NCBI RefSeq assembly: GCF_000016745.1 | Contig: NC_009483.1 | Location: 2,490,001 to 2,522,000, forward strand | Length of the DNA stretch: 32,000 nucleotides | Source: Geotalea uraniireducens Rf4 | GTDB lineage: Bacteria; Desulfobacterota; Desulfuromonadia; Geobacterales; Geobacteraceae | Reading direction: 5' to 3' | The notes under the pieces: model-generated | Told to the model about the DNA's origin: nothing | What the model saw: the letters and a program-made list of their open reading frames with translations, nothing else | Databases searched by the model: none | Translations under genes and position numbers: made by a program | Shown: positions 7,534-29,369 of the stretch, piece by piece | Position numbering within the stretch: the first letter of the stretch is position 1 | How the letters are laid out: every line of letters begins with the position of its first letter

Positions 7534-8172
7534 TTATTTTTCAATTTTAAATGGGAAAGTAAAATCGGGCGCAGCCGATTTAGCGGTTCCTTTTTTATAT
7601 ACAAGTAATTTGACACCTTTTTTACCGCTAAGGTCAATCTTGAAGTAAACAAGACCAGCAACCTTCGCTTTTGGAATAATGATTCCGTTTGCAATGGCTT
7701 TTGTGTATATATCCTGAGGGTATACTTCATAGAAATAGGGAAGTTGAGAGTTGAAAGTATTATAAAATGACGATTTTTCATAATCTTCCATATAATAAAA
7801 ACCGACGTATGGATAGGGTATCAAATAATAAGAATCTTTGGAGATAATTTCTTTAACCTTTTCCGGTGTCAAGGGGAAATACTGATTTCCATCACTGTCA
7901 ACGAGCAGAAATAAATCAGAGTCTAATGGCATCTCATTGTTACCCTGATTCTCTATCAAAACAGAAAATGCAGAAACAGTTCCTTCAAGATTATATGTGT
8001 AAAGTTGTGTATCGGCGCTAGATACTGTGATGGAAATGCTGTCTTTTGTCAGTGTCTGTGAGTTGTCCTTAGGATTTACGACACCCGATTCAACCGGTAC
8101 CGGTACAACTTTGAGTGAGCATCCTGTAACGAAAAATAACAATATCGCAAAGGAAAGAAATGACTTTTTCAT
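7534..8172 (-). CDS. lipoprotein of unknown function
   Basis: 212 aa. Signal peptide with lipobox MKKSFLSFAILLFFVTGC. Beta-rich, Tyr-rich mature part. No family recognised. Confidence 0.7.
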   Translation of the reverse strand: MKKSFLSFAILLFFVTGCSLKVVPVPVESGVVNPKDNSQTLTKDSISITVSSADTQLYTYNLEGTVSAFSVLIENQGNNEMPLDSDLFLLVDSDGNQYFPLTPEKVKEIISKDSYYLIPYPYVGFYYMEDYEKSSFYNTFNSQLPYFYEVYPQDIYTKAIANGIIIPKAKVAGLVYFKIDLSGKKGVKLLVYKKGTAKSAAPDFTFPFKIEK

Positions 8173-8207: not shown

Positions 8208-8636
8208 TTAAATTTTAATTTCCGAAAAATCATTCGCATACAACAAAATACGCACGGATTGGCGATTGCCTTTATCTACAGTATCATCTTGTGCCGCAAT
8301 ATACAAGTCAAGTCCCAGCTTATGTTTTATCCGCAAATATTGTTCAACTTCCTTGGCAAGATACAGCGACTTTTTCACCTTTTCATCTTTGCTGTTGGAG
8401 GGCGCAAAATAACCTTCTATTCTGACCACCTTCCCTTTCCCCAACATGATTAATTTGGGAACCAATGCATCAAGGTTATGCATGGCACGACCATCGGAGT
8501 TCAAGCTGCCTGTGCGAAAACTTATCTCTCCAATCTGTTCGCAACCTTCAGGAAGTGACTGATTGTCTCCCTGGGCGTATGTGAGTGTACACCAACCCAT
8601 TAATACAAGAAAACACACAATTCTAAACCGTTTCAT
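8208..8636 (-). CDS. secreted protein, possibly a degenerate OmpA-C-like domain
   Basis: 142 aa. Signal peptide MKRFRIVCFLVLMGWCTLTYAQG. VRIEGY...SLYLAKEV...NRQSVRILL loosely follows the OmpA-C pattern without the canonical peptidoglycan-binding residues. ATGA overlap with the upstream ompA-family gene. Confidence 0.6.
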   Translation of the reverse strand: MKRFRIVCFLVLMGWCTLTYAQGDNQSLPEGCEQIGEISFRTGSLNSDGRAMHNLDALVPKLIMLGKGKVVRIEGYFAPSNSKDEKVKKSLYLAKEVEQYLRIKHKLGLDLYIAAQDDTVDKGNRQSVRILLYANDFSEIKI

Positions 8637-10195
8637 CTGTTCCCCTTTGGAACGAGAAAGAGGACTTCAAAGCGACGGTTCATTCTTCTCCCATCAGTGG
8701 TGGAGTTGTCGGCGATTAACTTTGATTTTCCCATTCCTTTAACAAAGACGCGAGTCGGGTCTATGCCTTCTTTGATGATGAGATAACTGGCAATAGCAAT
8801 TGCACGCTTAATCGAAAGGTCCATATTGTAACCAACTGAACCAATACTGTCCGTATGACCATCTATACGTAAATACAACCATGTTTTATCAGTACGTGCT
8901 TGCTCGGCTACTTCCGACAAGGCTTTCTTCACTTCGTTCGACAACTCGATCTGGCCAAACTCAAACATAATATCCGGGAATCGGAACTTCCGATACACCG
9001 ACATTTTTTGTGAAATCTGCGTTGGCTTGGCATTCGAAACTTCAATATTGTCTCCCTTGACTTCGATCCCATAAAGTGGGGTTACCCCCTCCAAACTGGA
9101 CTCAGCAACAGGGTTTAATTCAGTCGCAATCTCAGCCTTCGGCTCGACGGGAATTTCACTTTCCAACTGAATCACCTTGGCTTCTCGGGGCAGCAACGGC
9201 ATAACAACGGGAGTCGAAACAGGTTGAGAAGGTATTGTTATCTGCCCGTAAGGCTTTATGACGATTTCTTCCTTGTCTGGATCGACCGGTATTTCTAATT
9301 TACTGGCCGGTACGATTGGTACAGCTGTTTTTATTAATGATGTGATCGGAATAATTTTGACCGGTTTTACTATTTCCTGTTTTTTATTTTTTTCATCATT
9401 CTCCGAGGCAAGCTTAGGAACCGCTTTTATATAGTTACCTATCCCCTGACAGGTAGAAAATCCGACGAGTGCCCGCCAATCGGGGCTAACAGAAGTAAGG
9501 CCGAACCCACCGGCTAAATTAAGCGTGAGGTGTGGTGAGATATAGTATTGGAGACCGACAGATCCCTCGACAGGGTAATCTGGAACATTGCTGCCGAATG
9601 GATTAGCTGCGTTCTTGCCAAAAACTTCCACAATTAATTTAGTTCTGGGGGTAGCCATATATTCAACACCGCCGCCATAAAGCAGTTCGTTATCGTAGGC
9701 ATTGCCGCCCGGGGCAAGGTAGCCGCCATAAAGATGGATTCCCACCCGATCCGTCTTTAATGAAGCTATGAGGCGTCCCCCCACATCGTTGATACCGTCA
9801 ACAGCTTTGTCTTCAGAAACATGCCGCTGAACAAATACATCCGCAGCAAGCTTTAGATTTGAATTCCTTTTTCCCAAAAATCGAATTTTAGCCCCTAAGT
9901 CGGCAGTACCTCTGCCCGAAGCATCTTCCTGGCCATTGAAAAGCAAGTTCGGATAGGTGCCATAAAATTCCAAGAAGGAACCCATGCCAAGAGTTACAGT
10001 TGCTGGCAGAATAGTAGAGTTTTTATTACCGGTGTTGCTGATATTACCCCAGATGCCAACACATATGTTTCCGGAATCCAACGTGTCGGCGGAAGGAACA
10101 TTGATAAGACCGGTGGCGCCGGTTTGGGTAGGGTTAGCGAATGCCAGCGAGGCAGGGATAATTATAGATAAAATCAATAAAATTAATATTTTCAT
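8633..10195 (-). CDS. OmpA-family outer-membrane protein (N-terminal beta-barrel, Pro/Val-rich linker, C-terminal OmpA/MotB peptidoglycan-binding domain)
   Basis: 520 aa. Signal peptide MKILILLILSIIIPASLAFA, then alternating beta-barrel-like sequence. Linker PVKIIPITS...PVVMPLLP. C-terminal motif IDGHTDSIGSVGYNMDLSIKRAIAIASYL...NRRFEVLF. Confidence 0.85.
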   Translation of the reverse strand: MKILILLILSIIIPASLAFANPTQTGATGLINVPSADTLDSGNICVGIWGNISNTGNKNSTILPATVTLGMGSFLEFYGTYPNLLFNGQEDASGRGTADLGAKIRFLGKRNSNLKLAADVFVQRHVSEDKAVDGINDVGGRLIASLKTDRVGIHLYGGYLAPGGNAYDNELLYGGGVEYMATPRTKLIVEVFGKNAANPFGSNVPDYPVEGSVGLQYYISPHLTLNLAGGFGLTSVSPDWRALVGFSTCQGIGNYIKAVPKLASENDEKNKKQEIVKPVKIIPITSLIKTAVPIVPASKLEIPVDPDKEEIVIKPYGQITIPSQPVSTPVVMPLLPREAKVIQLESEIPVEPKAEIATELNPVAESSLEGVTPLYGIEVKGDNIEVSNAKPTQISQKMSVYRKFRFPDIMFEFGQIELSNEVKKALSEVAEQARTDKTWLYLRIDGHTDSIGSVGYNMDLSIKRAIAIASYLIIKEGIDPTRVFVKGMGKSKLIADNSTTDGRRMNRRFEVLFLVPKGNR

Positions 10196-14040: not shown

Positions 14041-14604
14041 ATGTACACAGTGGCAGATCTCAGAAAAGGATTGAAAATAACCCTCGATGGCGATCCGTAT
14101 ATCGTTATTGCATTTGACTTTGCCAAGCCGGGCAAGGGGCAGGCTCTTTACCGTACAAAGATGCGTAACATGATCAACGGCACTATTCTCGACAGAACCT
14201 ACCGTTCAGGCGAAACTTTCGAACCCGCGAGCCTTGAAGATCGGAAAATGCAGTATCTCTATAAAGAGGACGACCACTACTGCTTTATGGATAATCAGTC
14301 CTACGAGCAGATACATGTGGATGAGAATGCCCTTGGCGATGCAAAGAACTATCTTATCGACAATCTGCCGGTAGACGTGCTTCTTTTCAAAGGCAAGGCA
14401 ATTGGTGTCGACGTGCCGAACTTTGTCAACCTGCGGGTCGTTCAGACAGACCCCTGGGCCAAGGGAGATACCTCTGGAAGCGATTCAAAGCCTGCAACCG
14501 TGGAAACAGGCTACGTACTCCGCGTTCCACCATTTATCGAAGAGGGCGAACTAATAACCATAGACACACGTACTGGTGAATATTCAACCCGGGTTAAGGG
14601 ATAA
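14041..14604 (+). CDS. efp: elongation factor P
   Basis: 187 aa. The KPGKGQA loop carries the modifiable Lys. Full three-domain length. Confidence 0.95.
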   Translation: MYTVADLRKGLKITLDGDPYIVIAFDFAKPGKGQALYRTKMRNMINGTILDRTYRSGETFEPASLEDRKMQYLYKEDDHYCFMDNQSYEQIHVDENALGDAKNYLIDNLPVDVLLFKGKAIGVDVPNFVNLRVVQTDPWAKGDTSGSDSKPATVETGYVLRVPPFIEEGELITIDTRTGEYSTRVKG

Positions 14605-14607
14605 CGG

Positions 14608-15531
14608 ATGGCTAAAAACTGGCCTCTGACCCGGCGCAAAGAAACACTCCGGGGAAGAAGCACCATTATACAGGAAATAAGAAGATTTTTTATTAAAGAG
14701 GGGTATCTGGAAGTGGATACCCCTCTTCGCATTCCTGCACCAGCGCCTGAATCTTATATCGAGGCGATTCCTTCCGGTAGATGGTTTCTTCACACGTCAC
14801 CGGAACTTTGCATGAAAAGGATGCTGGCCGCCGGCTACGAACGCATTTTCCAAATTTGCCGCTGCTGGCGGGATGGGGAGCGGGGTATTCGTCACCTCCC
14901 TGAATTTACCATGCTTGAGTGGTACAGGATCGATGCCGATTACCGCGATCTGATGAGCGAATGCGAGGCATTGATCAGGTCAGTGATCCATGTTTTGGGT
15001 CATGGCGGAAGCATTCGTTATCAAGGGATGGCTGTTGAGATAAACGAGCCCTGGGAAAAGTTGACGGTAAGTGAAGCCTTCATTCGATACAACGGAATGA
15101 CCATGGCGGAGGCATTAGAGACGGACCAGTTTGACGAAATCATGGTGAGAGATATCGAGCCACGGCTTGGCTTCGGGAAGCCGACCTTCATCTACGATTA
15201 CCCGGCTGAACGCGGTGCATTGGCCCGCATCAGTAAAGACAACCCGGCAGTAGCGGAGCGCTTTGAACTATACATCGGTGGCCTGGAGCTGGCTAACGCC
15301 TTTTCCGAACTGACGGATGCACAGGAACAGCGGGACAGATTTGTTCAGGAATCCACTTTCAGGGCATCAATGAACAGAGCCACTTATCCTCTGCCTGAAA
15401 AATTTCTCGATGAACTATCGGATATGCCCCCTTCTGCAGGGATTGCCCTGGGAGTGGACCGGCTCGTAATGGTGCTTCTGGATCTCTCCAGCATAGACGA
15501 CGTAGTTGCATTCACCCCTGAAGAATTATGA
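14608..15531 (+). CDS. epmA: EF-P-(R)-beta-lysine ligase (truncated class II LysRS paralog, GenX/PoxA)
   Basis: 307 aa. Class II aaRS motifs (FFIKEGYLEVDTP, EFTMLEWY, GIALGVDRLVM) without an anticodon-binding domain. Starts 4 nt after efp. Confidence 0.9.
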   Translation: MAKNWPLTRRKETLRGRSTIIQEIRRFFIKEGYLEVDTPLRIPAPAPESYIEAIPSGRWFLHTSPELCMKRMLAAGYERIFQICRCWRDGERGIRHLPEFTMLEWYRIDADYRDLMSECEALIRSVIHVLGHGGSIRYQGMAVEINEPWEKLTVSEAFIRYNGMTMAEALETDQFDEIMVRDIEPRLGFGKPTFIYDYPAERGALARISKDNPAVAERFELYIGGLELANAFSELTDAQEQRDRFVQESTFRASMNRATYPLPEKFLDELSDMPPSAGIALGVDRLVMVLLDLSSIDDVVAFTPEEL

Positions 15532-15547
15532 TCGCATAAACCCGCAT

Positions 15548-16591
15548 TCAGTCCACATCACCATACTCAACCATCTCCCCTCGATAATTCCTGACCAACA
15601 GGACATTCCCCCCTACTCTCTTCACATAGTCAGGCAATAAGGGCACCTTCCCCTTTCCTCCTTCCAGGTCAATCACGTAATAGGGAGATGCCATGCCGGA
15701 AGTATGTCCGCGCAGGCTTTCCATGATCTCAAGTCCCTGCTCGACTCTTGTTCGAAAGTGACCGGTTCCCTTCACCAAGTCCATCTGATGAATATAATAA
15801 GGTTTAACCCTTATCTTCAACAAGAGCTGCATCAGCCGTTTCATCACTCCGGGGTTGTCATTTACACCCTTTAACAGCACTGTCTGGTTTCCCAGAGGTA
15901 TTCCGGCATCGGCAAGCCTTGCACACGCAGTTGCCGATTCAGCGGTAATTTCCAACGGATGGTTGAAATGGGTATTTATATAGAGCGGGTGATATCTTTT
16001 CAGCATGCGACAGAGGCGCGTGGTAATTCGCTCCGGCAGTGTCACCGGGACGCGGCTGCCGATCCTGATGATTTCAAGATGGGGGATTTGCCGCAATCGA
16101 GCAAGTATCTCCTCCAGCGCGTCGTCATCGAGCAGCAACGGGTCGCCGCCGGAAAGTATGACATCGCGGATTTCCGGTCGACTTGCTATATAGTCGAGCG
16201 CAGCGCTGATTTGTACCTTTCCCGTTACAGCGCCAACACAACCGACCTGGCGTTTGCGCATGCAGAAGCGGCAGTAAACGGCACATGTGGATGAAACAAG
16301 CCAGACAACCCGGTCGGGATAGCGATGGATAAGCCCCGGCACGGGACTCAATATTTCTTCCCGGAGAGGGTCTTCCTGTTGCAGATCGTCTTCCAACTCA
16401 CGTGCATCAGGAACGCACTGCCGCCACAGGGGATCTCCCGGCTCATTAATGAGGTTGAGATAGTACGGGGTGATCCGCATCGGATAACGTTGCACCACCC
16501 GCAAAAGCGGTTCTGCATCTATCCCGAAACGCCGGGCAAGTTGTTCCGGGCTGGTAATGCTTGCAGCAAGGATGTTCTGCCATTTTCCCAT
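15548..16591 (-). CDS. epmB: lysine 2,3-aminomutase family radical-SAM enzyme (EF-P beta-lysylation)
   Basis: 347 aa. Radical-SAM CAVYCRFCMRK (CxxxCxxC), KamA-family length, convergent to efp-epmA. Confidence 0.88.
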   Translation of the reverse strand: MGKWQNILAASITSPEQLARRFGIDAEPLLRVVQRYPMRITPYYLNLINEPGDPLWRQCVPDARELEDDLQQEDPLREEILSPVPGLIHRYPDRVVWLVSSTCAVYCRFCMRKRQVGCVGAVTGKVQISAALDYIASRPEIRDVILSGGDPLLLDDDALEEILARLRQIPHLEIIRIGSRVPVTLPERITTRLCRMLKRYHPLYINTHFNHPLEITAESATACARLADAGIPLGNQTVLLKGVNDNPGVMKRLMQLLLKIRVKPYYIHQMDLVKGTGHFRTRVEQGLEIMESLRGHTSGMASPYYVIDLEGGKGKVPLLPDYVKRVGGNVLLVRNYRGEMVEYGDVD

Positions 16592-21535: not shown

Positions 21536-21611
<76 letters not shown>

Positions 21612-21743: not shown

Positions 21744-21830
21744 GCCGGAGTGGTGAAATTGGTAGACGCACTGGACTCAAAATCCAGCGGGAGCAATCCC
21801 ATGCCGGTTCGACCCCGGCCTCCGGCACCA
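21744..21830 (+). tRNA. tRNA-Leu (anticodon CAA), type II with long variable arm
   Basis: GCCGGAGTGGTGAAATTGGTAGACGCACTGGACTCAAAATCCAGCGGGAGCAATCCCATGCCGGTTCGACCCCGGCCTCCGGCACCA. Anticodon loop CT-CAA-AA, 7-bp acceptor stem, encoded CCA. Closely resembles enterobacterial tRNA-Leu. Confidence 0.93.
21808..21830 (+). repeat. proximal copy of the 23-nt direct repeat (3' end of tRNA-Leu), candidate att core
   Basis: TTCGACCCCGGCCTCCGGCACCA recurs at 29639-29660 with a single G deleted. Confidence 0.55.
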
Positions 21831-21893: not shown

Positions 21894-22495
21894 GTGCGCC
21901 AGGCATGGCGCGTGGCGCGTAAGCGCCATCCAATTGGGTATGGTGCCTGATTGGTGACTTGGAGGTGAAAGTCCTCTTCGGACCCTGATGGTGGGAACCG
22001 ATAGCTGAACAGCAAGGGTGTCCGGGGCGACCCGGAATCTGAAGGAAGCTGTAGGCAAAGTCCTGGCCCGACGAACAGGAATCGCATATGAGGCAGCCAC
22101 ATCTGGGCGAGAAGGCAAACAGATTCAAAGCCCGATAACCATCCAGAAAGATGTGGAAGTAGATGCGGCGGGTATATGGGATGAAGGTCACGCGCATTAC
22201 CCTGGGAGGTCTGTCAACCTGCCTTGTGCTACCGGCATCGAGAGGTGCCGGGATGGGTTGGCAGAAGTCAGCAGAGGCCATACGAGTCGGAATAACCGAC
22301 CGACAAAGGGCCGAACTTGAAGTAAGCGGACAGGAGCCTTGAGTTTCGATGACGACAGGAGCAGCAGAAGGCCGGGTTGGGATACCCGGCGCCAGCCCGG
22401 AGGGTAGCGGTTGGAAACCGCGAGAGAAAGGGAGAGGTGCGGCAAACGTCACGGGAAGGAAAGCAGCTCACTGGCCGGAAGCGGCAACGGGACTG

Positions 22496-23752
22496 ATGGA
22501 GAAGATCGTCAGTCGCGGCAACATGATGGCGGCATACTCACGGGTAATGCGCAACAAGGGAGCGCCCGGCGTCGATAACATGCCGGTAACGGCCCTGAAG
22601 GGCTACCTACAGGAGGAATGGCCGCGCATCAGAGAAGAACTGCTGACGGGAACGTATCACCCGCAACCGGTGCGGAAAGTAGAAATTCCCAAACCGGGAG
22701 GCGGCACACGGATGCTGGGAATTCCCACCGTCCTTGACCGACTCATTCAGCAGGCGGTGCATCAAGTTTTGAGCCCGCTGTTCGACCCTGGTTTCTCCAT
22801 AAGTTCCCACGGGTTTCGCCCTGGACGGAGCGCCCATCAAGCGATCAAGGCAGCTCGGAAGTATGTAGAGAGCGGCCTTAGGTGGGTGGTTGACATTGAC
22901 CTTGAGAAATTTTTCGACCGAGTCCACCACGACACCCTTATGTCGCTGGTGAAACGCAAGGTTGGAGACCGTCTGGTGCTGTCCCTTATCGACAGCTACC
23001 TTAAGGCAGGGATACTTGAAGGAGGAGTGACGTCACCCCGGTTGGAAGGCACGCCGCAAGGCGGGCCTCTCTCGCCGCTGCTGTCCAACATCCTCCTCGA
23101 CGAACTGGACAAGAAACTGGAAAGAAGGGGCCATAAGTTCTGCCGCTATGCCGACGACGCAAATATCTATGTTGCAACGAGGAGAAGCGGCGAGCGTGTC
23201 ATGGCCTCAATTACCGGCTACCTGTCCGAGCGGCTCAAGCTCACGGTCAACCAGGGCAAAAGCGCGGTTGACCGTCCGTGGAAAAGGTCGTTTCTGAGTT
23301 ACAGCATGACCCGGCACCGCAAACCGCGGCTTACCGTGGCCAAGAAAGCGGCTGCCAGGCTCAAGGCCAACCTCAAGACGATCTTTAGGCGGGGAAGGGG
23401 TCAGAACATCCAAACCACCGTTGAAGAGACAACCCCGAAACTTAGGGGTTGGTTAAACTACTTTCGGTACGCGGAAGTAAAAGGCATCTTCGAGGAACTG
23501 GACGGATGGCTGAGACGTAAACTGCGTCGCATTCTCTGGAAGCAGTGGAAGCGCCCCAAGACGCGAGCAAAGAAACTGATGCGGCGGGGATTATCGGAGG
23601 CAACTGCATGGCGGTCGGCCACAAACGGCCGCGGCCCCTGGTGGAATGCAGGGGCCGCGCATATGAACAAAGCTGTTCCGAAATTCTACTTCGACAAACT
23701 GGGGCTGGTATCACTCATAGACCAGCTTCACCGACTTCAACGTACTTCATGA
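22496..23752 (+). CDS. group II intron reverse transcriptase/maturase (no endonuclease domain)
   Basis: Start taken at MEKIVSRGNMMAAY (ATG 22496); the longer track ORF from 22349 runs through ribozyme sequence. RT blocks PKPGGGTRMLGIPTVLDRLIQQA, HGFRPGRSAHQA, DIDLEKFFDRVHHD, GTPQGGPLSPLLSNILL and the YADD box (FCRYADDANIYV). Maturase X motif is LRGWLNYFRYA. The C-terminus ends ...FDKLGLVSL with no HNH Cys motifs. Confidence 0.9.
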   Translation: MEKIVSRGNMMAAYSRVMRNKGAPGVDNMPVTALKGYLQEEWPRIREELLTGTYHPQPVRKVEIPKPGGGTRMLGIPTVLDRLIQQAVHQVLSPLFDPGFSISSHGFRPGRSAHQAIKAARKYVESGLRWVVDIDLEKFFDRVHHDTLMSLVKRKVGDRLVLSLIDSYLKAGILEGGVTSPRLEGTPQGGPLSPLLSNILLDELDKKLERRGHKFCRYADDANIYVATRRSGERVMASITGYLSERLKLTVNQGKSAVDRPWKRSFLSYSMTRHRKPRLTVAKKAAARLKANLKTIFRRGRGQNIQTTVEETTPKLRGWLNYFRYAEVKGIFEELDGWLRRKLRRILWKQWKRPKTRAKKLMRRGLSEATAWRSATNGRGPWWNAGAAHMNKAVPKFYFDKLGLVSLIDQLHRLQRTS

Positions 23753-23784
23753 ACCGCCGTGTACGGAACCGTACGCACGGTGGT
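23753..23784 (+). ncRNA. group II intron domain V
   Basis: ACCGCCGUGUACG-GAAC-CGUACGCACGGUGGU. Lower 5-bp helix contains a CGC triad with a G.U wobble. There is a 2-nt AC bulge on the 3' strand and a 7-bp upper helix. This is the canonical domain V architecture. Confidence 0.8.
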
Positions 23785-23786
23785 GT

Positions 23787-23820
23787 GGGAGGACGGCGGG
23801 AGCAATCCCGCCTCCTACCC
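23787..23820 (+). ncRNA. group II intron domain VI with bulged branch-point A (23817)
   Basis: GGGAGGA-C-GGCGGGA-GCAA-UCCCGCC-UCCU-A-CCC. GNRA-capped helix with a single unpaired A, 6 nt before the proposed 3' splice site. Confidence 0.7.
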
Positions 23821-23825
23821 GATTT

Positions 23826-24206: not shown

Positions 24207-25531
24207 GAGGGTGTAAAAAGGTTTGTGTAAATGGTCATTAGGGGGTACACCAAGTTACCCTAAGGAGATCACATGACTATTAACACCGACGTAATCGACG
24301 ATCTACTCAAACATTATAAGACCCCCGAAGAGATTCTAGGGGAAAACGGGCTGCTGAAGCAGTTGACCAAGGCTGTTCTTCAGCGGGCGCTCCAGGCTGA
24401 AATGACACTGCACCTCGGCCACGAGAAGCATGCTTCCGTTTCCGCCAAAGGTGGCAATGCACGCAATGGCTCGTCGGCAAAGACCATCAAAGGCGATTTT
24501 GGCACCATGCCGATTGAGGTCCCTCGTGACCGGGATAGCAGCTTTGAACCAGTCATCATTCCCAAAGGCCAAACCCGGTTCGCCGAGTTCGATGATAAGA
24601 TTATCTCCCTGTACTCCCGCGGGCTTACCACTCGTGAGATCCAGGGACACTTGGAGGAAATCTACGGTGTTGAAGTATCCCCCGCTCTGATTTCAATAGT
24701 GACTGAAGCAGTAGCTGAAGAGGTCAAAGCTTGGCAGAACCGCCCGTTGGATGCGCTTTATCCCATCGTTTACATGGATGCCATCAGGGTCAAAGCCAGA
24801 GGCAATGGCCATGTTGTGAACAAGGCTGTCTATCTGGCCATCGGCATCAACATAGACGGTGCCAAGGAAGTTCTGGGAATGTGGGTCTCCGAAAACGAAG
24901 GAGCCAAGTTCTGGTTGCAGGTTGTGACCGAACTTAAGAACCGTGGTGTCCAAGACATCTTCATTGCCTGCGTTGACGGCCTGAAGGGGTTCCCTGAGGC
25001 CATAGAAATAGTTTATCCCAACACTCAAGTCCAACTTTGCATCGTCCATATGGTACGCAATTCCTTGAAGTTCGTTTCGTGGAAACAACGCAAAGAAGTT
25101 GCGACAGATTTGAAGGTTATCTACCAGTCAGCGACCGCTGAGCAGGCCGAAATGGAACTGACAGCATTTGAGGCAAAATGGGACAAAACACACCCGACGA
25201 TCAGCCAGTCCTGGCGCCGGAACTGGGCGCAAGTTATACCATTTTTTGCCTATCCAGCTGATATACGAAAGGTTATTTACACAACCAATGCCATTGAATC
25301 ACTGAATATGTCACTCAGAAAGGTGACCAAAAACCGGGGCTCGTTTCCCAATGATGAGGCAATGTTCAAGTTACTATACCTGGCGCTGAGAAACATCGCG
25401 AAGAAATGGACCCTGCCGATCAGAGACTGGAAAGCTGCCATGAACCGCTTTTCCATTCTTTTTGAAGACAGAATGCCAAGCTATTAAAAACAGGGAACCA
25501 AAACCATTTACACAAAACTATTGACAGGCCC
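24207..25531 (+). mobile_element. IS256-family insertion sequence (1325 bp)
   Basis: Single mutator-type transposase ORF. Imperfect 29-bp terminal inverted repeats: GAGGGTGTAAAAAGGTTTGTGTAAATGGT at 24207-24235, against the reverse complement of 25503-25531, GGGCCTGTCAATAGTTTTGTGTAAATGGT (22/29 identical). Flanked by an 8-bp direct repeat, the size expected for IS256-family elements. Confidence 0.88.
24273..25487 (+). CDS. IS256-family (mutator-type) DDE transposase
   Basis: 404 aa with AAGGAG SD. Conserved blocks LKQLTKAVLQRALQAEMTLHLG, IVYMDAIRVK (D), FIACVDGLKGFPEAI (D), IYTTNAIESLNMSLRK (E). Confidence 0.93.
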   Translation: MTINTDVIDDLLKHYKTPEEILGENGLLKQLTKAVLQRALQAEMTLHLGHEKHASVSAKGGNARNGSSAKTIKGDFGTMPIEVPRDRDSSFEPVIIPKGQTRFAEFDDKIISLYSRGLTTREIQGHLEEIYGVEVSPALISIVTEAVAEEVKAWQNRPLDALYPIVYMDAIRVKARGNGHVVNKAVYLAIGINIDGAKEVLGMWVSENEGAKFWLQVVTELKNRGVQDIFIACVDGLKGFPEAIEIVYPNTQVQLCIVHMVRNSLKFVSWKQRKEVATDLKVIYQSATAEQAEMELTAFEAKWDKTHPTISQSWRRNWAQVIPFFAYPADIRKVIYTTNAIESLNMSLRKVTKNRGSFPNDEAMFKLLYLALRNIAKKWTLPIRDWKAAMNRFSILFEDRMPSY

Positions 25532-25638: not shown

Positions 25639-26589
25639 CTATGGCCTTATCTCAACAATCGTACCATTTGGCGCTAACTTGGCAATTTCCTCTATTTCTT
25701 CGTCTGTTACGGCAATACACCCTTTCGTCCAGTCAACCTCTGTGTGAAAATCACCAACCCACGAGAAACCATTCTTAATTCCGTGGATCATGATGTTTCC
25801 GCCCGTAGAAACACCTAGTTCTTTTGCTCGCTTTTTGTCTCTCTCGTTTGGATAGGAAATATGAAGAGATAGGTGATAATGGCTGTCCTTGTTTCTTGAA
25901 TCGATGAAGTAGGTTCCCTCCGGGGTTTTGTTATCGCCTTGCCTTTCTTTTGGACCATTCGGGTTTCCCCCCAAGGCTATCTTGTAGGTTTTGAGCACCT
26001 CCCCCTTTGAGATCAACATCAATCGTCGTTCTTTTTTTTCTATCAGAATCTTATCTACCAATCCTTTCTGGATTGCAAAAGCAAAAACCTTTTGTTCTAG
26101 CGCTTTAATCTTTTTTTGCAGTGTAATAATTTCATTCCCCCTGCTTTCAACCTCTTGCTGGAGAGTCTCAATTTGTGTTTGCTGCGTGGTAATCATCTTA
26201 TCCTTGATAGTGACATTATTGATATAAAATATCATCCTCTCACTGTCCTGCCTGTACCCACTCCCTGGGTAGTCCTTTATGAGTTTCTGAAAACATTCCA
26301 GGGATTTCTGATAATCTTTTTGCTCATTCTTCGGATGCGCATAAATAATACCCATCTCGAATAGAACCCTGTCTCCCGTCGTGGGATATTTTTCAATAAT
26401 CTGCTCATATTTGTTCAGAGAGGCCTTGTAGTTTCCCTGGCTAAAAGAATTATTTGCTTCTTCGAAGGTTGACTTGGCCTGGAATCCTTCACTAAAGTGA
26501 CTGCATCCGCACATTAGAATTGATGTTATTATGATGCAGATAAAGAAAAAGAAAAGGTGCTCACCCTTCCTGCTTTGTTTTTTACCCAT
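25639..26589 (-). CDS. YafK/DpaA-like L,D-transpeptidase-fold lipoprotein with N-terminal TPR-like and coiled-coil region
   Basis: The C-terminal 150 aa, ERRLMLISKGEVLKTYKIALGGNPNGPKERQGDNKTPEGTYFI...YHLSLHISYPN...GGNIMIHG...DWTKGCIAVTDEEIEEI, match the YafK-type YkuD fold, including catalytic His and Cys. Start chosen at MGKKQSRKGEHLFFFFICIIITSILMCGC (26589, lipoprotein-like). ATG 26652 has a better SD (AAGGGGTGAGGAG), so the start is uncertain. Confidence 0.8.
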   Translation of the reverse strand: MGKKQSRKGEHLFFFFICIIITSILMCGCSHFSEGFQAKSTFEEANNSFSQGNYKASLNKYEQIIEKYPTTGDRVLFEMGIIYAHPKNEQKDYQKSLECFQKLIKDYPGSGYRQDSERMIFYINNVTIKDKMITTQQTQIETLQQEVESRGNEIITLQKKIKALEQKVFAFAIQKGLVDKILIEKKERRLMLISKGEVLKTYKIALGGNPNGPKERQGDNKTPEGTYFIDSRNKDSHYHLSLHISYPNERDKKRAKELGVSTGGNIMIHGIKNGFSWVGDFHTEVDWTKGCIAVTDEEIEEIAKLAPNGTIVEIRP

Positions 26590-26768
26590 ATATGTCAAAG
26601 ACGGTCTAAATCTTTTAGACAGTACAATTTGGAAGATTCTCAGTTCCCTCATCTCCTCACCCCTTGGCAGAAGCATCAGGAATATCTTGTGCTAAGAGCC
26701 TGATATCCTGGCTTAACAGGTTAAATGCTTGAGTCGTCCAGACAGACTTAAATGATGGATAAGGAAAT

Positions 26769-26790
26769 GGCAGGGTTTTGAGACCCTGCC
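26769..26790 (-). terminator. terminator hairpin after the Lpp-like gene
   Basis: Minus strand GGCAGGGU-CUCAAA-ACCCUGCC followed by AUUUCCUUAU. 8-bp GC-rich stem, 53 nt after the stop codon. Confidence 0.5.
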
Positions 26791-26843
26791 ACTTCATTAT
26801 CCGGAGCGCTAAAGGTAAAGTTAACAGCTCCCTTAAAATTGAC

Positions 26844-27122
26844 TTACTTCCTCATCGATTTCTGGAAAGCGGCGTCAGCTCTTTTCGCCTTTTCATCTGC
26901 GATCCTTTCCCTTTCCAATGCCGCCTTTTCAGCATCATCTGCCTTTAACTTGGCCACATCGGCTGCCGCCTTGGCAGCTTGCGCATCCTGCAATGCCTGA
27001 TCAGCTTTCGCATCAATCAGTTTTTGCTGCGCCTGCACTTTCTCGAGCTCACCGGTTGTTGCACAACCCATCATAGTAACGAGAACAAGCATCATTGAAA
27101 TCACCAAAAGACTTTTCTTCAT
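26844..27122 (-). CDS. Braun-lipoprotein-like small alpha-helical lipoprotein with C-terminal Lys
   Basis: 92 aa, strong SD (AAAGGAGGTG). Signal peptide ends ...LVTMMGC. The mature protein (about 73 aa) is Ala/Lys/Asp/Gln-rich with a heptad pattern (KVQAQQKLIDAKADQALQDAQAAKAAADVAKLKADDAEKAALE) and ends ...KSMRK. Compare E. coli Lpp, which ends ...TKYRK. Confidence 0.75.
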   Translation of the reverse strand: MKKSLLVISMMLVLVTMMGCATTGELEKVQAQQKLIDAKADQALQDAQAAKAAADVAKLKADDAEKAALERERIADEKAKRADAAFQKSMRK

Positions 27123-27301
27123 CTCTAATCACCTCCTTTCTGTTCAGTTTACATTATTTTAATAGTGACTGTTAAAATCCAGCGCTACTTCACAAATAAT
27201 ATTCACATTGGTTATTGATTGGTTGCAAGAACATATACCAGGAAGAGGGAACGCGTGAAGTTCACAATATCTCCCCTGAACATAAGAAAAGCTGGGATCG
27301 A

Positions 27302-28621
27302 CTATCTCTTCTTGACAGGTTCAATCAATATACCGTCTATTTCCAAATCAATTTTCAAGCGTTTGGTTGCATCTTTGGCCTCACTGATATCATTGAAAGG
27401 GCCAGCGATAACACGGTAGCTATTGCTCTTTGATAACACCATTGCCGGGATTTGTGGACCCTGGTGGTTGATAATGGTGGCAATCCTCAGAGCTTCAATC
27501 TCGTCACGCACATCAGCAGCCAAAACATACCACGCCTCCATTTTCAGTTCTGGTATTTCCGGTCTGCCATACAATTTGTCTGGGTGCTCGACTTCTATGG
27601 TTCTCGAAGCCTCTTTTTCACTTCCTTGACTCATCTCGAAGATGGGAACAGGAATCCCTCGGGCCTCGGCCTGCACTTCCTTAACTTTTCTCCAGTCAAG
27701 CGTGCGCGCCGATTTCTTTTCAATATTTCTCAATTTTGCGTATGTCTTCTCTAGCTCAATAGCGCCCGAGTCTTCCAGAGGCGTATGAGCTTCCATGTAA
27801 AGTACTCCATTACGTTGACCTATGAGATATGGCTGGTTAACAATGACTACAGGGGTATTAACTGGAGTGTCATCGTAGAGCATCTTCACGTTTTCTGGAT
27901 ATAGTCTCAAGCAGCCATTGGTTGCTTTAAGACCAATGCTGGCAGGTTTATTAGTACCATGGATCAAATAACCCGATTTGCTTAAATAGAGCGCGCATTC
28001 TCCCAAGGGATTTTGAGGTCCCGGCGGAACTTCTGCGGGCAGAGGATCGCCTTTTTTTCTATGATCCTCAGAAATTGAAGCAGGCACATGCCAGGTCGGC
28101 CGGGTTGCCTTGCGCTCCACATGCATTTGACCTGTGGGCGTGGGTCGCTCCTTGGTTCCGACACCGACCGGGTAGGTCGACACCACCAGTGACTTACTAT
28201 CCCCTTTAAATTGAAAGAGCCTCATGGTGGCTAAGTTGACCACAATGCCTTTTCTGGGAGCGTCCGGCAGGATAAAACTCAGAGGCAACATGATACGCTC
28301 TCCGGCCTCAGGCACCCATACATCTACCCCTGGATTAGCTGCACTGATTGCAATGATCCCCAGACTGAAGTGTCTTGCAATATCCGGTAGCGTATCCCCC
28401 TTTTCAAGCCTGATGACTGCCAACCGACCAATGACGTCATCTCCTCTTGCAACCGAAAACTCATTTCGTTCGATCTCCTTTTCAGGATGGCTTGGAAAAA
28501 GCCAGGATTTCTCCTGAACACTGTTCATAACAGCACATCCATTGAGAGATAAGATGAATGTACATAGAGCTATAAGACGAAGCCAATTGGATAAGAGTGA
28601 CAGGTCAACGATTCGGCACAT
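27302..28621 (-). CDS. L,D-transpeptidase of the ErfK/YbiS/YcfS/YnhG type: lipoprotein signal, LysM-like, YkuD catalytic and C-terminal SPOR domains
   Basis: 439 aa. Signal/lipobox LIALCTFILSLNGC. LysM-like LEKGDTLPDIARHFSLGIIAISAANPGV. FILPDAPRKGIVVNLATMRLFQF...PTPTG...RPTWHVPASI...NPLGECALYL...YLIHGTNKPASIGLKATNGCLRL carries the catalytic His and Cys. SPOR-like AWYVLAADVRDEIEALRIA...YRVIAGPFNDISEAKDATKRL. Confidence 0.87.
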   Translation of the reverse strand: MCRIVDLSLLSNWLRLIALCTFILSLNGCAVMNSVQEKSWLFPSHPEKEIERNEFSVARGDDVIGRLAVIRLEKGDTLPDIARHFSLGIIAISAANPGVDVWVPEAGERIMLPLSFILPDAPRKGIVVNLATMRLFQFKGDSKSLVVSTYPVGVGTKERPTPTGQMHVERKATRPTWHVPASISEDHRKKGDPLPAEVPPGPQNPLGECALYLSKSGYLIHGTNKPASIGLKATNGCLRLYPENVKMLYDDTPVNTPVVIVNQPYLIGQRNGVLYMEAHTPLEDSGAIELEKTYAKLRNIEKKSARTLDWRKVKEVQAEARGIPVPIFEMSQGSEKEASRTIEVEHPDKLYGRPEIPELKMEAWYVLAADVRDEIEALRIATIINHQGPQIPAMVLSKSNSYRVIAGPFNDISEAKDATKRLKIDLEIDGILIEPVKKR

Positions 28622-28786
28622 GGGTTAAATAAGCTACCTTTCTCAAAAATGAAAATTAATATAAATAAAAGAAATAAAAGAAGAAATAAAAGAGTCAGCC
28701 CTTGACACGGGACAAATGGCCCCCCCTCAGCTCTATGCGTCTTTAAAAGCGCAGCTCTTGCTGACTCGACCTCCTTTTTATGTTTT

Positions 28787-28900
28787 GACAACAAAAAAGC
28801 CGGGACCGAATATCGTGTGATATTTCGGCAACCCGGCTGTCTCAGTGAGACCCTGTAGGCTTTCCGCCCCACCCTCGCGGATGGTTGAGTATTATCGTTT
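28787..28900 (-). promoter_or_regulatory. GEMM-I-like cyclic-dinucleotide riboswitch unit 1 (aptamer about 28822-28900, terminator 28787-28837)
   Basis: Minus strand: AAUACUCAACC-AUCC-GCGA-GGGU-GGGGCGGAAAGCCUACAGGGUCUCACUGAGACAGCCGGGUUGCCGAAAUAUC-ACAC-GAUAUUCGGUCCCGGC-UUUUUUGUUGU. It resembles the c-di-GMP-I aptamer core (GNRA hairpin, ACGCAAAGCC-like junction, AGCNGGGUURCCGA 3' segment). The terminator 5' arm is the aptamer 3' segment. Confidence 0.6.
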
Positions 28901-28971
28901 ATCACTAACCGTCATAATACGGTGCCCTTTAAAGGCGCACCTCTTGCTGACTCGACCTCCTTTTATGTTTT

Positions 28972-29085
28972 GACAACAAAAAAGCCGGGACCGAATATCG
29001 TGTGATATTTCGGCAACCCGGCTGTCTCAGTAAGACCCGTAGGCTTTCCGCCCCATTCTTGCGAATGGTTAAGTATTATCGTCTA
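28972..29085 (-). promoter_or_regulatory. GEMM-I-like cyclic-dinucleotide riboswitch unit 2 (aptamer about 29007-29085, terminator 28972-29022)
   Basis: Paralogous copy: AAUACUUAACC-AUUC-GCAA-GAAU-GGGGCGGAAAGCCUACGGGUCUUACUGAGACAGCCGGGUUGCCGAAAUAUC... with an identical terminator. Stem differences from unit 1 all preserve pairing. Confidence 0.6.
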
Positions 29086-29105
29086 TCTCTCAAACATTTT
29101 TTTGC

Positions 29106-29133
29106 ATCTTACATTTCTATAAAGATTTGTCAA
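29106..29133 (-). promoter_or_regulatory. candidate promoter for the riboswitch leader
   Basis: Minus strand TTGACA (29133-29128), 16-nt spacer, TAAGAT (29111-29106), about 25 nt upstream of aptamer 2. Pattern only. Confidence 0.3.
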
Positions 29134-29200: not shown

Positions 29201-29369
29201 CTAGGAGCCTGTCGGACTTAGGAATGAATCTACTGCGAGAACGGAAAATCGGTCCATATTACCGGAAATTTTCGACAAATAGGTCCACTATTCGCTCTCA
29301 AATTTCCGATAATCTGTCCTCGATTTGCCATTCTCTCGCTACGATTCCCTAAGTCCGACAGACTCCTAG
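29201..29369. mobile_element. MITE-like palindromic element (169 bp) with 22-bp terminal inverted repeats
   Basis: CTAGGAGCCTGTCGGACTTAGG (29201-29222) against CCTAAGTCCGACAGACTCCTAG (29348-29369), 21/22 complementary. There is also an internal inverted repeat (GGTCCATATTACCGGAAATTT against its complement near 29310-29331). No ORF. The terminal CTAG could instead be a 4-bp target duplication. Confidence 0.45.

Follow-up and report, generated by a model that had tools for sequence, protein, structure and literature searches.

A murein lipoprotein homologue of the Lpp/OprI family is encoded between two YkuD enzyme genes in a riboswitch-led operon of Geotalea uraniireducens and is a candidate covalent envelope tether

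Does Geotalea uraniireducens Rf4 fasten its outer membrane to its peptidoglycan with a covalently bound lipoprotein, in the manner of Lpp from Escherichia coli? This question is raised by a gene for a 92-amino acid (aa) prolipoprotein within a 32,000-nucleotide stretch of contig NC_009483.1 (positions 2,490,001 to 2,522,000), hereafter called the window, to which all coordinates below refer unless another locus is named. A first-pass annotation had proposed that the product is an Lpp-like lipoprotein and a candidate tether joining outer membrane and peptidoglycan. This proposal was upheld as far as sequence comparison can take it, because the protein belongs to the Lpp/OprI family, its C-terminal Lys is present in every homologue that was parsed, and its gene is flanked on both sides by genes for YkuD-domain proteins. 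We consider it likely that the gene encodes an Lpp/OprI murein lipoprotein residing in an operon that also provides for its attachment to, and its detachment from, peptidoglycan.

The gene (lpp/oprI-type, hereafter lpp) occupies 26844..27122 on the minus strand, which is exactly the open reading frame (ORF) recognized at first pass, and its product is MKKSLLVISMMLVLVTMMGCATTGELEKVQAQQKLIDAKADQALQDAQAAKAAADVAKLKADDAEKAALERERIADEKAKRADAAFQKSMRK. The precursor begins with MKKSLLVISMMLVLVTMMG followed by C, such that an MKK start and a hydrophobic core lead into the lipobox TMMG/C at residue 20. The signal peptide (aa 1-19) is encoded by 27066..27122 and the predicted lipidation site, Cys20, by 27063..27065, all on the minus strand. 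The mature part comprises 73 residues, is rich in a few amino acids (A21, K11, D8, Q7, E6) and ends in FQKSMRK, with the codon for the terminal Lys92 at 26847..26849 and the stop codon at 26844..26846 on the same strand. A strong Shine-Dalgarno sequence, AGGAGGTG, can be read off the minus strand at 27130..27137, 7 nucleotides (nt) 5' of the ATG. In the best heptad register, 75% of the a and d positions are filled by A, L, I, V, M or F, compared with 24% in the worst register; the same measure yields 78% for OprI and 93% for E. coli Lpp. An AlphaFold2 model of the monomer is one unbroken helix over residues 2-91 (mean pLDDT 85.6, exceeding 90 over residues 40-90). The earlier description of an Ala/Gln/Lys/Asp-rich heptad coiled coil that follows an MMGC lipobox and ends in SMRK therefore stands.

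Membership of the protein in the Lpp/OprI alanine-zipper family is near certain. It scores 42.9 bits with PF11839 (Alanine_zipper, 'major outer membrane lipoprotein'; cut-off 23.1, E = 5.8e-11) over profile positions 1-69 of 69, and 90.6 bits with the NCBIfam model NF040598 ('Lpp/OprI family alanine-zipper lipoprotein'; cut-off 43), on which residues 3-92 align with positions 1-90 of 90. A search of 5.8 billion proteins returned 745 homologues, hundreds of which carry the JGI label 'murein lipoprotein', and a 100% identical database protein from Geotalea uraniireducens is already named 'Lpp/OprI family alanine-zipper lipoprotein'. InterPro also files Geobacter proteins as murein lipoprotein. 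The idea that this might be an independently arisen analogue of Lpp had to be abandoned, because the protein is an already annotated homologue in a curated and named family.

Comparison with hidden Markov models (HMMs) of the Lpp family had been suggested as a check, and its outcome was divided. The lipoprotein exceeds the cut-offs of PF11839 and NF040598, whereas the enterobacterial LPP model PF04728 was unreported even at E <= 1. With the model NF011925 (cut-off 108) the score was 10.6 bits (E = 0.52). Used as a single sequence against solved structures, the lipoprotein yielded marginal Lpp matches only (E = 0.19). A profile of its subfamily matched the alanine-zipper Lpp mutant 1kfn at E = 0.003 and wild-type Lpp (1eq7) at E = 0.51 in the PDB. 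Membership in PF04728 itself was considered and rejected, since a subfamily-profile match of E = 0.003 to an engineered alanine-zipper Lpp only is insufficient. Alignment with E. coli Lpp by hhalign gave 91% probability (E = 9e-7) over residues 1-59, a stretch that includes the signal peptide, and the alignment is carried by a shared AKxDQxxxDA core (IDAKADQALQDAQAAK in the window protein, LNAKVDQLSNDVNAMR in Lpp). The corresponding hhalign comparison of the subfamily profile with OprI aligned the signal peptide region only, so the relationship to OprI rests on the curated HMMs.

The genes on either side of lpp, on which the first-pass annotation had not remarked, encode YkuD proteins with distinct active-site motifs. 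Upstream, at 27302..28621 on the minus strand, lies a gene for a 439-aa L,D-transpeptidase with a lipobox-like LSLNGC, a weak LysM match (E = 0.08), a YkuD domain (PF03734, E = 2.6e-22) bearing the motif TNGCLR, and a C-terminal SPOR domain (E = 2.7e-7). Its closest NCBIfam models belong to the ErfK/YbiS/YcfS/LdtE group (LdtE, 173 bits; PRK10190, 168 bits; PRK10260, 157 bits), and its match in the PDB is 9tyw (E = 1.5e-67). These features make it a candidate for the enzyme that would attach the C-terminal Lys of the lipoprotein to meso-diaminopimelate (meso-DAP).

Downstream, a 345-aa ORF occupies 25639..26676 on the minus strand; its likely start is Met30 at 26589, giving a protein of ~316 aa, and public gene calls assign 343 or 314 aa. 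In the product, a lipobox-like LMCGC is accompanied by BamD-like TPR repeats, a segment of coiled coil and a YkuD domain that bears the motif TKGCIA (PF03734, E = 2.7e-19, accompanied by TPR and YfiO matches). This motif places Ala where transpeptidases have Arg, two residues past the catalytic Cys. An Arg-to-Ala signature of this kind marks DpaA, which acts as an amidase to free Lpp from peptidoglycan (PMC8263019, PMC10653827, PMC10434034). Enzymes of the DpaA/YafK type have Ala or Asn at this position (PMC8263019, PMC10434034). The closest solved relative of the downstream protein is E. coli DpaA itself (8IKR, E = 1.3e-8), and in the aligned segment the two proteins keep a GD-x-K-[ST]-PEG stretch around the region of the essential Lys83. 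Because TKGCIA is the DpaA/YafK signature, the downstream protein most likely hydrolyses the Lys-DAP bond, and it is a candidate for a DpaA-like amidase that would free the lipoprotein from peptidoglycan. All three products appear to be lipoproteins, given their lipobox-like N-termini and the concordant annotations of the Geobacter sulfurreducens (GSU) genes. Taken together, the three genes would constitute a module for attaching, forming and detaching a tether.

The extent to which this arrangement is conserved was evaluated with a set of 79 loci, taking one genome per species, in which gene order was checked by tblastn with the three window proteins. The order YkuD(SPOR), lipoprotein, YkuD(TPR) occurs in essentially every locus with sufficient flanking DNA, and the flanking enzymes are 56-89% identical to those of the window. 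The survey of homologues called for at first pass therefore places the cassette in 79 species-representative genomes. Motifs and lengths were counted from parsed ORFs, which comprised 74 lipoproteins, 70 upstream enzymes and 64 downstream enzymes. All 70 upstream orthologues carry (S/T)xGChR, and TxGCIA is found in 64 of 64 downstream orthologues. Among the lipoproteins, the [GAS]-C-A-T sequence at the end of the signal peptide is invariant and the C-terminal Lys is universal (74/74). The last four residues are SMKK in 45 proteins, SMRK in 26, SMMK in two and SMLK in one, such that 71 of the 74 proteins have K or R next to last.

In contrast to these fixed ends, the length of the mature lipoprotein varies, and it does so only in whole heptads. 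Mature lengths of 73 (7 loci), 80 (44), 87 (12), 94 (10) and 122 residues (1) were observed, which conform to 73+7n in all 74 homologues with no exception. The differences can be traced to one mid-protein heptad insertion or deletion and to tandem [KR]IA[DE]EKA heptads near the C-terminus, of which there are 1 to ~8. The largest number, up to ~8, is found in locus L056 (6001-6426), which encodes the 122-residue mature protein, and the repeat is also present in L043, L046 and L055. Such a series is as expected of a predicted coiled-coil spacer whose register is preserved between two functionally fixed ends. The first-pass annotation had also remarked that the window lipoprotein is longer than Lpp. 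This is true of the comparison with E. coli (73 versus 58 residues), but within its own subfamily the protein falls in the shortest class, the usual mature length being 80 residues.

Loci with the cassette bear the labels Geobacteraceae, Pelobacter, Desulfuromonas, Oryzomonas, Pelotalea, Syntrophus/Syntrophaceae, Syntrophorhabdus, Desulfobacterales and Nitrospirae/Thermodesulfovibrionales, where the taxon names are those of the metagenome-assembled genomes (MAGs) as given. In eight loci labelled Nitrospirae/Thermodesulfovibrionales (L034, L043, L044, L055, L057, L063, L064 and L071), the YkuD proteins are 70-83% identical to those of Geotalea, and the same range of identity is seen in L048, labelled as a Thermoplasmata archaeon, and in L078, labelled Phycisphaerae. 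High identity of the YkuD proteins across phylum labels suggests that the cassette either was passed from one phylum to another or is under very strong constraint. The labels of L048 and L078 belong to short contigs and are probably binning errors. In a Syntrophus-labelled MAG there is additionally a second gene of the lpp/oprI type, a paralogue on the opposite strand (L023:3892-4185, minus strand), ~0.5 kb upstream of the SPOR-YkuD gene.

What controls the expression of this cassette in Geotalea? An Rfam scan of the whole window revealed two c-di-GMP-I (GEMM-I) aptamers on the minus strand, both located 5' of the upstream YkuD gene, in its leader. Aptamer 1, which is promoter-proximal, spans 29009..29084 (RF01051, 51.9 bits), and the gene-proximal aptamer 2 spans 28824..28900 (42.6 bits; gathering threshold 35 for both). 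Each is part of a leader unit of ~185 nt that is directly duplicated. A simple terminator scan missed the terminators of these units, which have bulged stems, and RNA folding was used instead. Minimum free energy folds of 28965-29088 (z = -6.4) and 28782-28904 (z = -5.2), both on the minus strand, reveal intrinsic terminators composed of a hairpin followed by U6 at 28977..29023 (terminator 1) and 28792..28838 (terminator 2), also on the minus strand. In both units the 5' arm of the terminator is the 3' strand of the aptamer, and the minimum-energy fold without ligand is the terminator. By this sharing of a strand each unit is predicted to be an ON switch, and two such switches follow one another. 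Just 5' of aptamer 1 is TTGACA-16-TAAGAT (29106..29133, minus strand), the only match to a sigma-70-like promoter in the leader, which agrees with the consensus at 10 of 12 positions; it is a consensus match only. Between cydB and this promoter there is also a long imperfect palindrome (29201..29369), whose 22-nt arms are separated by 125 nt and match each other with 95% complementarity, and which produces a spurious, sub-threshold 'MIR8562' match in Rfam on both strands.

Alignment to the Rfam consensus indicates that both window aptamers carry A at the position corresponding to G20 of Vc2. Work by Kellenberger et al. and Nelson et al. in 2015 reportedly found that an A at this position confers selectivity for cyclic GMP-AMP (cGAMP). 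To judge by this nucleotide, the window aptamers would be of the GEMM-Ib, cGAMP-responsive type. Residues G20, A47 and C92 are contacts to the ligand, and GEMM-Ib RNAs are cGAMP-selective (PMC5888326).

Leaders at the other loci were surveyed with a covariance model built from 14 aptamers. Between one and three aptamers, most often two, precede the cassette wherever upstream DNA is sufficient in loci labelled Geobacter, Geobacteraceae, Pelobacter, Oryzomonas, Pelotalea or Geoanaerobacter. The model found no aptamers in loci labelled Syntroph*, Nitrospir* or Desulfobacterales, and Rfam concurs with it on six loci of each kind, with and without aptamers. Two Geobacteraceae loci (L028 and L045) have three serial aptamers upstream of the cassette rather than two, and L007 has a further strong GEMM-Ib-type aptamer downstream of the cassette, on the opposite strand (8745-8830, minus strand).

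Expression data are available for a corresponding operon in G. sulfurreducens. Hallberg et al. (eLife 2019, PMC6456294) described GSU0183 (YkuD, SPOR), GSU0182 (lipoprotein, 303 nt) and GSU0181 (YkuD, TPR) behind the tandem riboswitches GSUR3002 and GSUR3001. The layout is identical to that of the window, in that tandem GEMM-I aptamers are followed on one strand by genes for a SPOR-YkuD lipoprotein, a small lipoprotein and a TPR-YkuD lipoprotein. From annotation, gene sizes and layout, we infer that the two cassettes are orthologous. GSU0182, at 100 aa (80 mature), is one heptad longer than the window protein at 92 aa (73 mature). RNA-seq values for the wild type, ΔesnD and ΔgacA strains are 53/96/3 for GSU0183, 175/286/7 for GSU0182 and 128/219/6 for GSU0181 (PMC6456294 supplement). 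Transcripts of all three genes thus drop ~20-fold in the mutant lacking the cGAMP synthase GacA, and the riboswitch RNAs are GacA-dependent as well (PMC6456294). The same study lists a highly expressed 'predicted RNA' at an intergenic position equivalent to one in the window where a long GC-rich hairpin (26757..26802, core stem 26768..26791, minus strand), recognized from a terminator-like match and by folding, lies 3' of lpp and is followed by a weak T-rich tail. The segment 26750-26843 that begins 3' of the lpp stop codon folds on the minus strand into a very stable hairpin (-42.6 kcal/mol, z = -7.6). Lying between lpp and the downstream YkuD gene, this hairpin probably serves either as a partial terminator or to stabilise the mRNA.

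These observations can be combined into a proposed mechanism. The precursor would be exported, lipidated at Cys20 and delivered to the outer membrane, where it would reside in the inner leaflet. Retention in the inner membrane was considered and found unlikely, as position +2 holds Ala and not Asp; this sorting rule is that of E. coli and may not transfer. The 73-residue mature part would then assemble in parallel into an alanine-zipper coiled coil, probably trimeric like that of Lpp, with a length of ~10 nm. A helical rise of ~0.15 nm per residue underlies this estimate. The epsilon-amino group of Lys92 would be joined to meso-DAP of stem peptides by an L,D-transpeptidase, for which the upstream SPOR-bearing enzyme with the TNGCLR motif is the best candidate, and the downstream TKGCIA protein would most likely break the Lys92-DAP bond again. 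The three genes would be transcribed as one operon behind the two tandem GEMM-Ib-type riboswitches, whose terminators are predicted to form unless ligand keeps the aptamers closed. Because each terminator forms without ligand, the tether would be made on demand as a second messenger rises, which, by the behaviour of the G. sulfurreducens orthologues, is most likely 3',3'-cGAMP. The covalent tether at the centre of this scheme is, in our assessment, fairly probable.

Characterized systems offer points of comparison for this mechanism. One is OprI of Pseudomonas aeruginosa, the best-studied member of the family outside the enteric bacteria; both lipoproteins belong to PF11839/NF040598 and share a lipobox Cys, an Ala-rich heptad helix, and a basic residue followed by a terminal Lys. 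OprI is linked to meso-DAP via its C-terminal Arg-Lys by LdtPae2, for which a Tri-Lys-Arg muropeptide has been documented, and the YafK-like LdtPae3, with the motif SxGChA, has been proposed to release it (PMC10434034). An ErfK-lineage L,D-transpeptidase has been shown, and a YafK-like SxGChA enzyme proposed, to serve OprI (PMC10434034), and the two YkuD proteins of the window are candidate counterparts of these enzymes. The systems differ in that peptidoglycan attachment is proven for OprI and predicted for the window lipoprotein, and in mature length, which is 64 aa for OprI and 73 aa here. In the window, genes for the candidate attaching and detaching enzymes flank the lipoprotein gene in a single riboswitch-controlled operon.

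E. coli Lpp shares with the window lipoprotein the same architecture and presumed mechanism, namely a lipidated Cys, a parallel coiled coil and a C-terminal Arg-Lys joined to meso-DAP. However, the core of the window protein is an alanine zipper (75% hydrophobic a and d positions) whereas that of Lpp is composed of Leu, Val and Ile (93%), and the window protein is longer by 15 residues. Expression of Lpp is constitutive, whereas data on the orthologous operon indicate that expression of the window cassette is conditional and gated by riboswitches. In E. coli K-12 (L080, NC_000913.3, 1757421..1758725), lpp (b1677) is directly adjacent and convergent to ldtE (b1678), so the adjacency of lpp and ldt genes is not unique to the Geobacter lineage. 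E. coli DpaA (YafK/LdtF) has the YkuD fold and the Ala two residues after the catalytic Cys in common with the downstream protein of the window. It is otherwise a compact, single-domain, soluble protein, whereas the window protein has a lipobox, BamD-like TPR repeats and a coiled coil.

Several results count against this mechanism. In addition to the failure of the PF04728 and NF011925 models to recognize the lipoprotein, its a/d core weakens toward the C-terminus, where d positions are occupied by R and K. The upstream protein scores far below the equivalog cut-offs (480-583) of the NCBIfam models to which it is closest. Moreover, anchoring L,D-transpeptidases and those that form 3-3 cross-links are not separable by sequence and do not form separate lineages (PMC10434034). 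The downstream protein reaches 43.6 bits with the DpaA/YafK model NF040599 (cut-off 365) and also matches Bd1075 (7O21, E = 5e-5). Bd1075, Csd6 and Pgp2 are L,D-carboxypeptidases that likewise do not have the Arg (PMC10653827). No muropeptide or sacculus data for Geobacter or a relative were found in the searchable literature, and a recent report that asserts a covalent link for Lpp of G. sulfurreducens (Nat Commun 2026) does so by citing work on E. coli. With respect to the ligand, 63 of 69 related aptamers have A at the position aligned to G20, and the other 6 have G.

Some of these points are shared by an alternative that we regard as unlikely, in which the protein belongs to the same family and resides in the outer membrane as a coiled-coil lipoprotein but is free rather than bound to peptidoglycan, perhaps surface-exposed or associated with vesicles, while the neighbouring enzymes only remodel peptidoglycan. 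This would agree with the fact that the searchable literature contains no biochemical report of a bound form in the Geobacter lineage, and with the finding that sequence does not distinguish an anchoring L,D-transpeptidase from a cross-linking one. The downstream enzyme could similarly be one of the Arg-less L,D-carboxypeptidases, given its match to Bd1075, and LdtE, the neighbour of Lpp in E. coli, is a cross-linking rather than an anchoring enzyme. A further family member, licanantase, is reported as the major secretome component (PMC4137666). However, a free lipoprotein would have no obvious need for a Lys that is C-terminal in 74 of 74 homologues and is preceded by a basic residue in 71. 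Nor does this alternative sit easily with three genes that remain adjacent and in constant order across several classes and phyla, or with a downstream enzyme whose closest solved relative is DpaA itself. We therefore favour the covalently attached Lpp/OprI-type tether over a free lipoprotein.

A second alternative, which we judge to be quite improbable, is that the lipoprotein regulates or scaffolds the two YkuD lipoproteins, for example as a coiled-coil adaptor that positions or activates both enzymes at the outer membrane, and does not bear load as a tether. The lipoprotein-like character of all three products is compatible with such a role, as are the coiled-coil and TPR interaction modules of the downstream enzyme. 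The operon is also conditional and dispensable in the ΔgacA strain (PMC6456294), unlike the constitutive and highly abundant Lpp of E. coli. Nonetheless, characterized members of the Lpp/OprI family are substrates rather than regulators, and lengths that change by whole heptads from 73 to 122 residues between invariant termini better fit a spacer or ruler between fixed attachment points. Lastly, the suspicion that lpp is a chance reading frame in low-complexity DNA, which might be prompted by its short, Ala-rich product and by ORFs of 52-56 aa on the opposite strand, can be rejected with hardly any reservation in view of the matches above curated HMM cut-offs, the 745 homologues, the conserved synteny, the strong ribosome-binding site, insertions and deletions in multiples of 7 codons only, and the high transcription of the G. 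sulfurreducens orthologue.

Parts of this picture have been published, although in separate places. Mandela et al. (eLife 2022), using IPR016367 sequences, stated that Lpp proteins of at least 99 residues exist naturally in Geobacter, and asked whether this correlates with a wider periplasm. A later study (Nat Commun 2026) reported that 'Lpp, the abundant Braun lipoprotein' of G. sulfurreducens is upregulated at low Na+, and cited its length as suiting periplasmic enlargement. The main text of that study contains no locus tag for Lpp and does not mention cGAMP, riboswitches or transpeptidases; its Lpp is likely GSU0182, which two transcriptome papers name 'murein lipoprotein'. The suggestion made at first pass that a long Lpp in this lineage could imply a wider periplasm was accordingly anticipated by Mandela et al. 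and reused in 2026. Hallberg et al., for their part, referred to the products of GSU0183-0181 as 'uncharacterized lipoprotein transpeptidases', with no discussion of a tether of the Lpp type or a member of the DpaA type (PMC6456294). The Lpp/OprI annotation, the long Geobacter Lpp with its connection to periplasm width (in two papers) and the place of the operon in the cGAMP regulon are thus already known. Nowhere in the searchable literature is the cGAMP-controlled Geobacter operon described as an Lpp tether flanked by one transpeptidase-type and one DpaA-type YkuD enzyme. What is added here is the interpretation of the R-type and A-type YkuD enzymes as candidates for attachment and detachment, the strict quantization of lipoprotein length in heptads, the occurrence of the cassette far beyond Gammaproteobacteria and, in a form that has no riboswitch, beyond Desulfuromonadia, and the recognition that the reported phylogenetic restriction of Lpp is an artefact of PF04728.

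This last point concerns a premise of the first-pass annotation, namely that Lpp is confined to Gammaproteobacteria. Witwinowski et al. and Winkle et al. (PMC8263019) placed Lpp in a subset of Gammaproteobacteria using PF04728 as the sole model. Because lipoproteins such as that of the window do not match PF04728, surveys that use this model alone call Lpp specific to Gammaproteobacteria. The restriction is true for PF04728 only, and these surveys missed the PF11839 branch in Desulfuromonadota, other Desulfobacterota and Nitrospirota-labelled genomes, as did surveys that found DpaA in bacteria without Lpp, which likewise relied on PF04728.

The remainder of the window provides additional context for the cassette. 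A gene for an IS256/Mutator-family transposase (24273..25487, plus strand; PF00872, E = 1.8e-127) lies ~150 nt past the stop codon of the final cassette gene, which encodes the downstream YkuD protein. Farther along is a group II intron (22021..23823, plus strand; RF02001, RF01998 and RF00029 matches) with a reverse transcriptase/maturase ORF at 22349..23752 (RVT_1 and GIIM). It adjoins the divergent genes for tRNA-Ala(ggc) (21536..21611, minus strand) and tRNA-Leu(caa) (21744..21830, plus strand), being located just after the latter. The cassette is separated from the TPR and purN genes by ~1.15 kb in L081 and L082, metagenomic contigs that are closely related, and by ~4.4 kb in the window, and the group II intron and IS256 element therefore look like insertions that are specific to the Geotalea uraniireducens genome.

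A protein of 520 aa, whose C-terminal domain is of the OmpA peptidoglycan-binding type, is encoded at 8633..10195 on the minus strand and is another candidate link, in this case non-covalent, of the outer membrane to peptidoglycan. The ORFs 8208..8636 and 7534..8172, which are 3' of it on the same strand, have no Pfam match. Elsewhere (14041..16591), an elongation factor P (EF-P) gene adjoins a truncated class II lysyl-tRNA-synthetase-like gene (14608..15531) and a lysine 2,3-aminomutase-like radical SAM gene (15548..16591), a trio that we take to resemble the EF-P beta-lysylation set (EpmA/EpmB).

What might these findings mean for Geotalea and its relatives? The paper on Geobacter Lpp is silent on the riboswitch, cGAMP and the flanking transpeptidases, and the work on the cGAMP operon is silent on an Lpp tether; the analysis presented here brings the two together. 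As a tentative proposal, which we consider possible but on balance doubtful as a whole, a cGAMP-gated covalent tether of the Lpp type would be deployed only in a surface- or mineral-associated lifestyle. The rod would be tuned between lineages in whole heptads (73 to 122 residues) and thereby set the width of the periplasm for trans-envelope electron conduits, and the module without its riboswitch would be widespread in Desulfobacterota and Nitrospirota. The 73+7n series provides a natural set of lengths with which to ask whether tether length sets envelope spacing. If this proposal is true, covalent tethering of the Lpp type would not be a recent gammaproteobacterial invention, contrary to the surveys that relied on PF04728, and the presence of DpaA-like enzymes in bacteria considered to be 'Lpp-less' would be explained.

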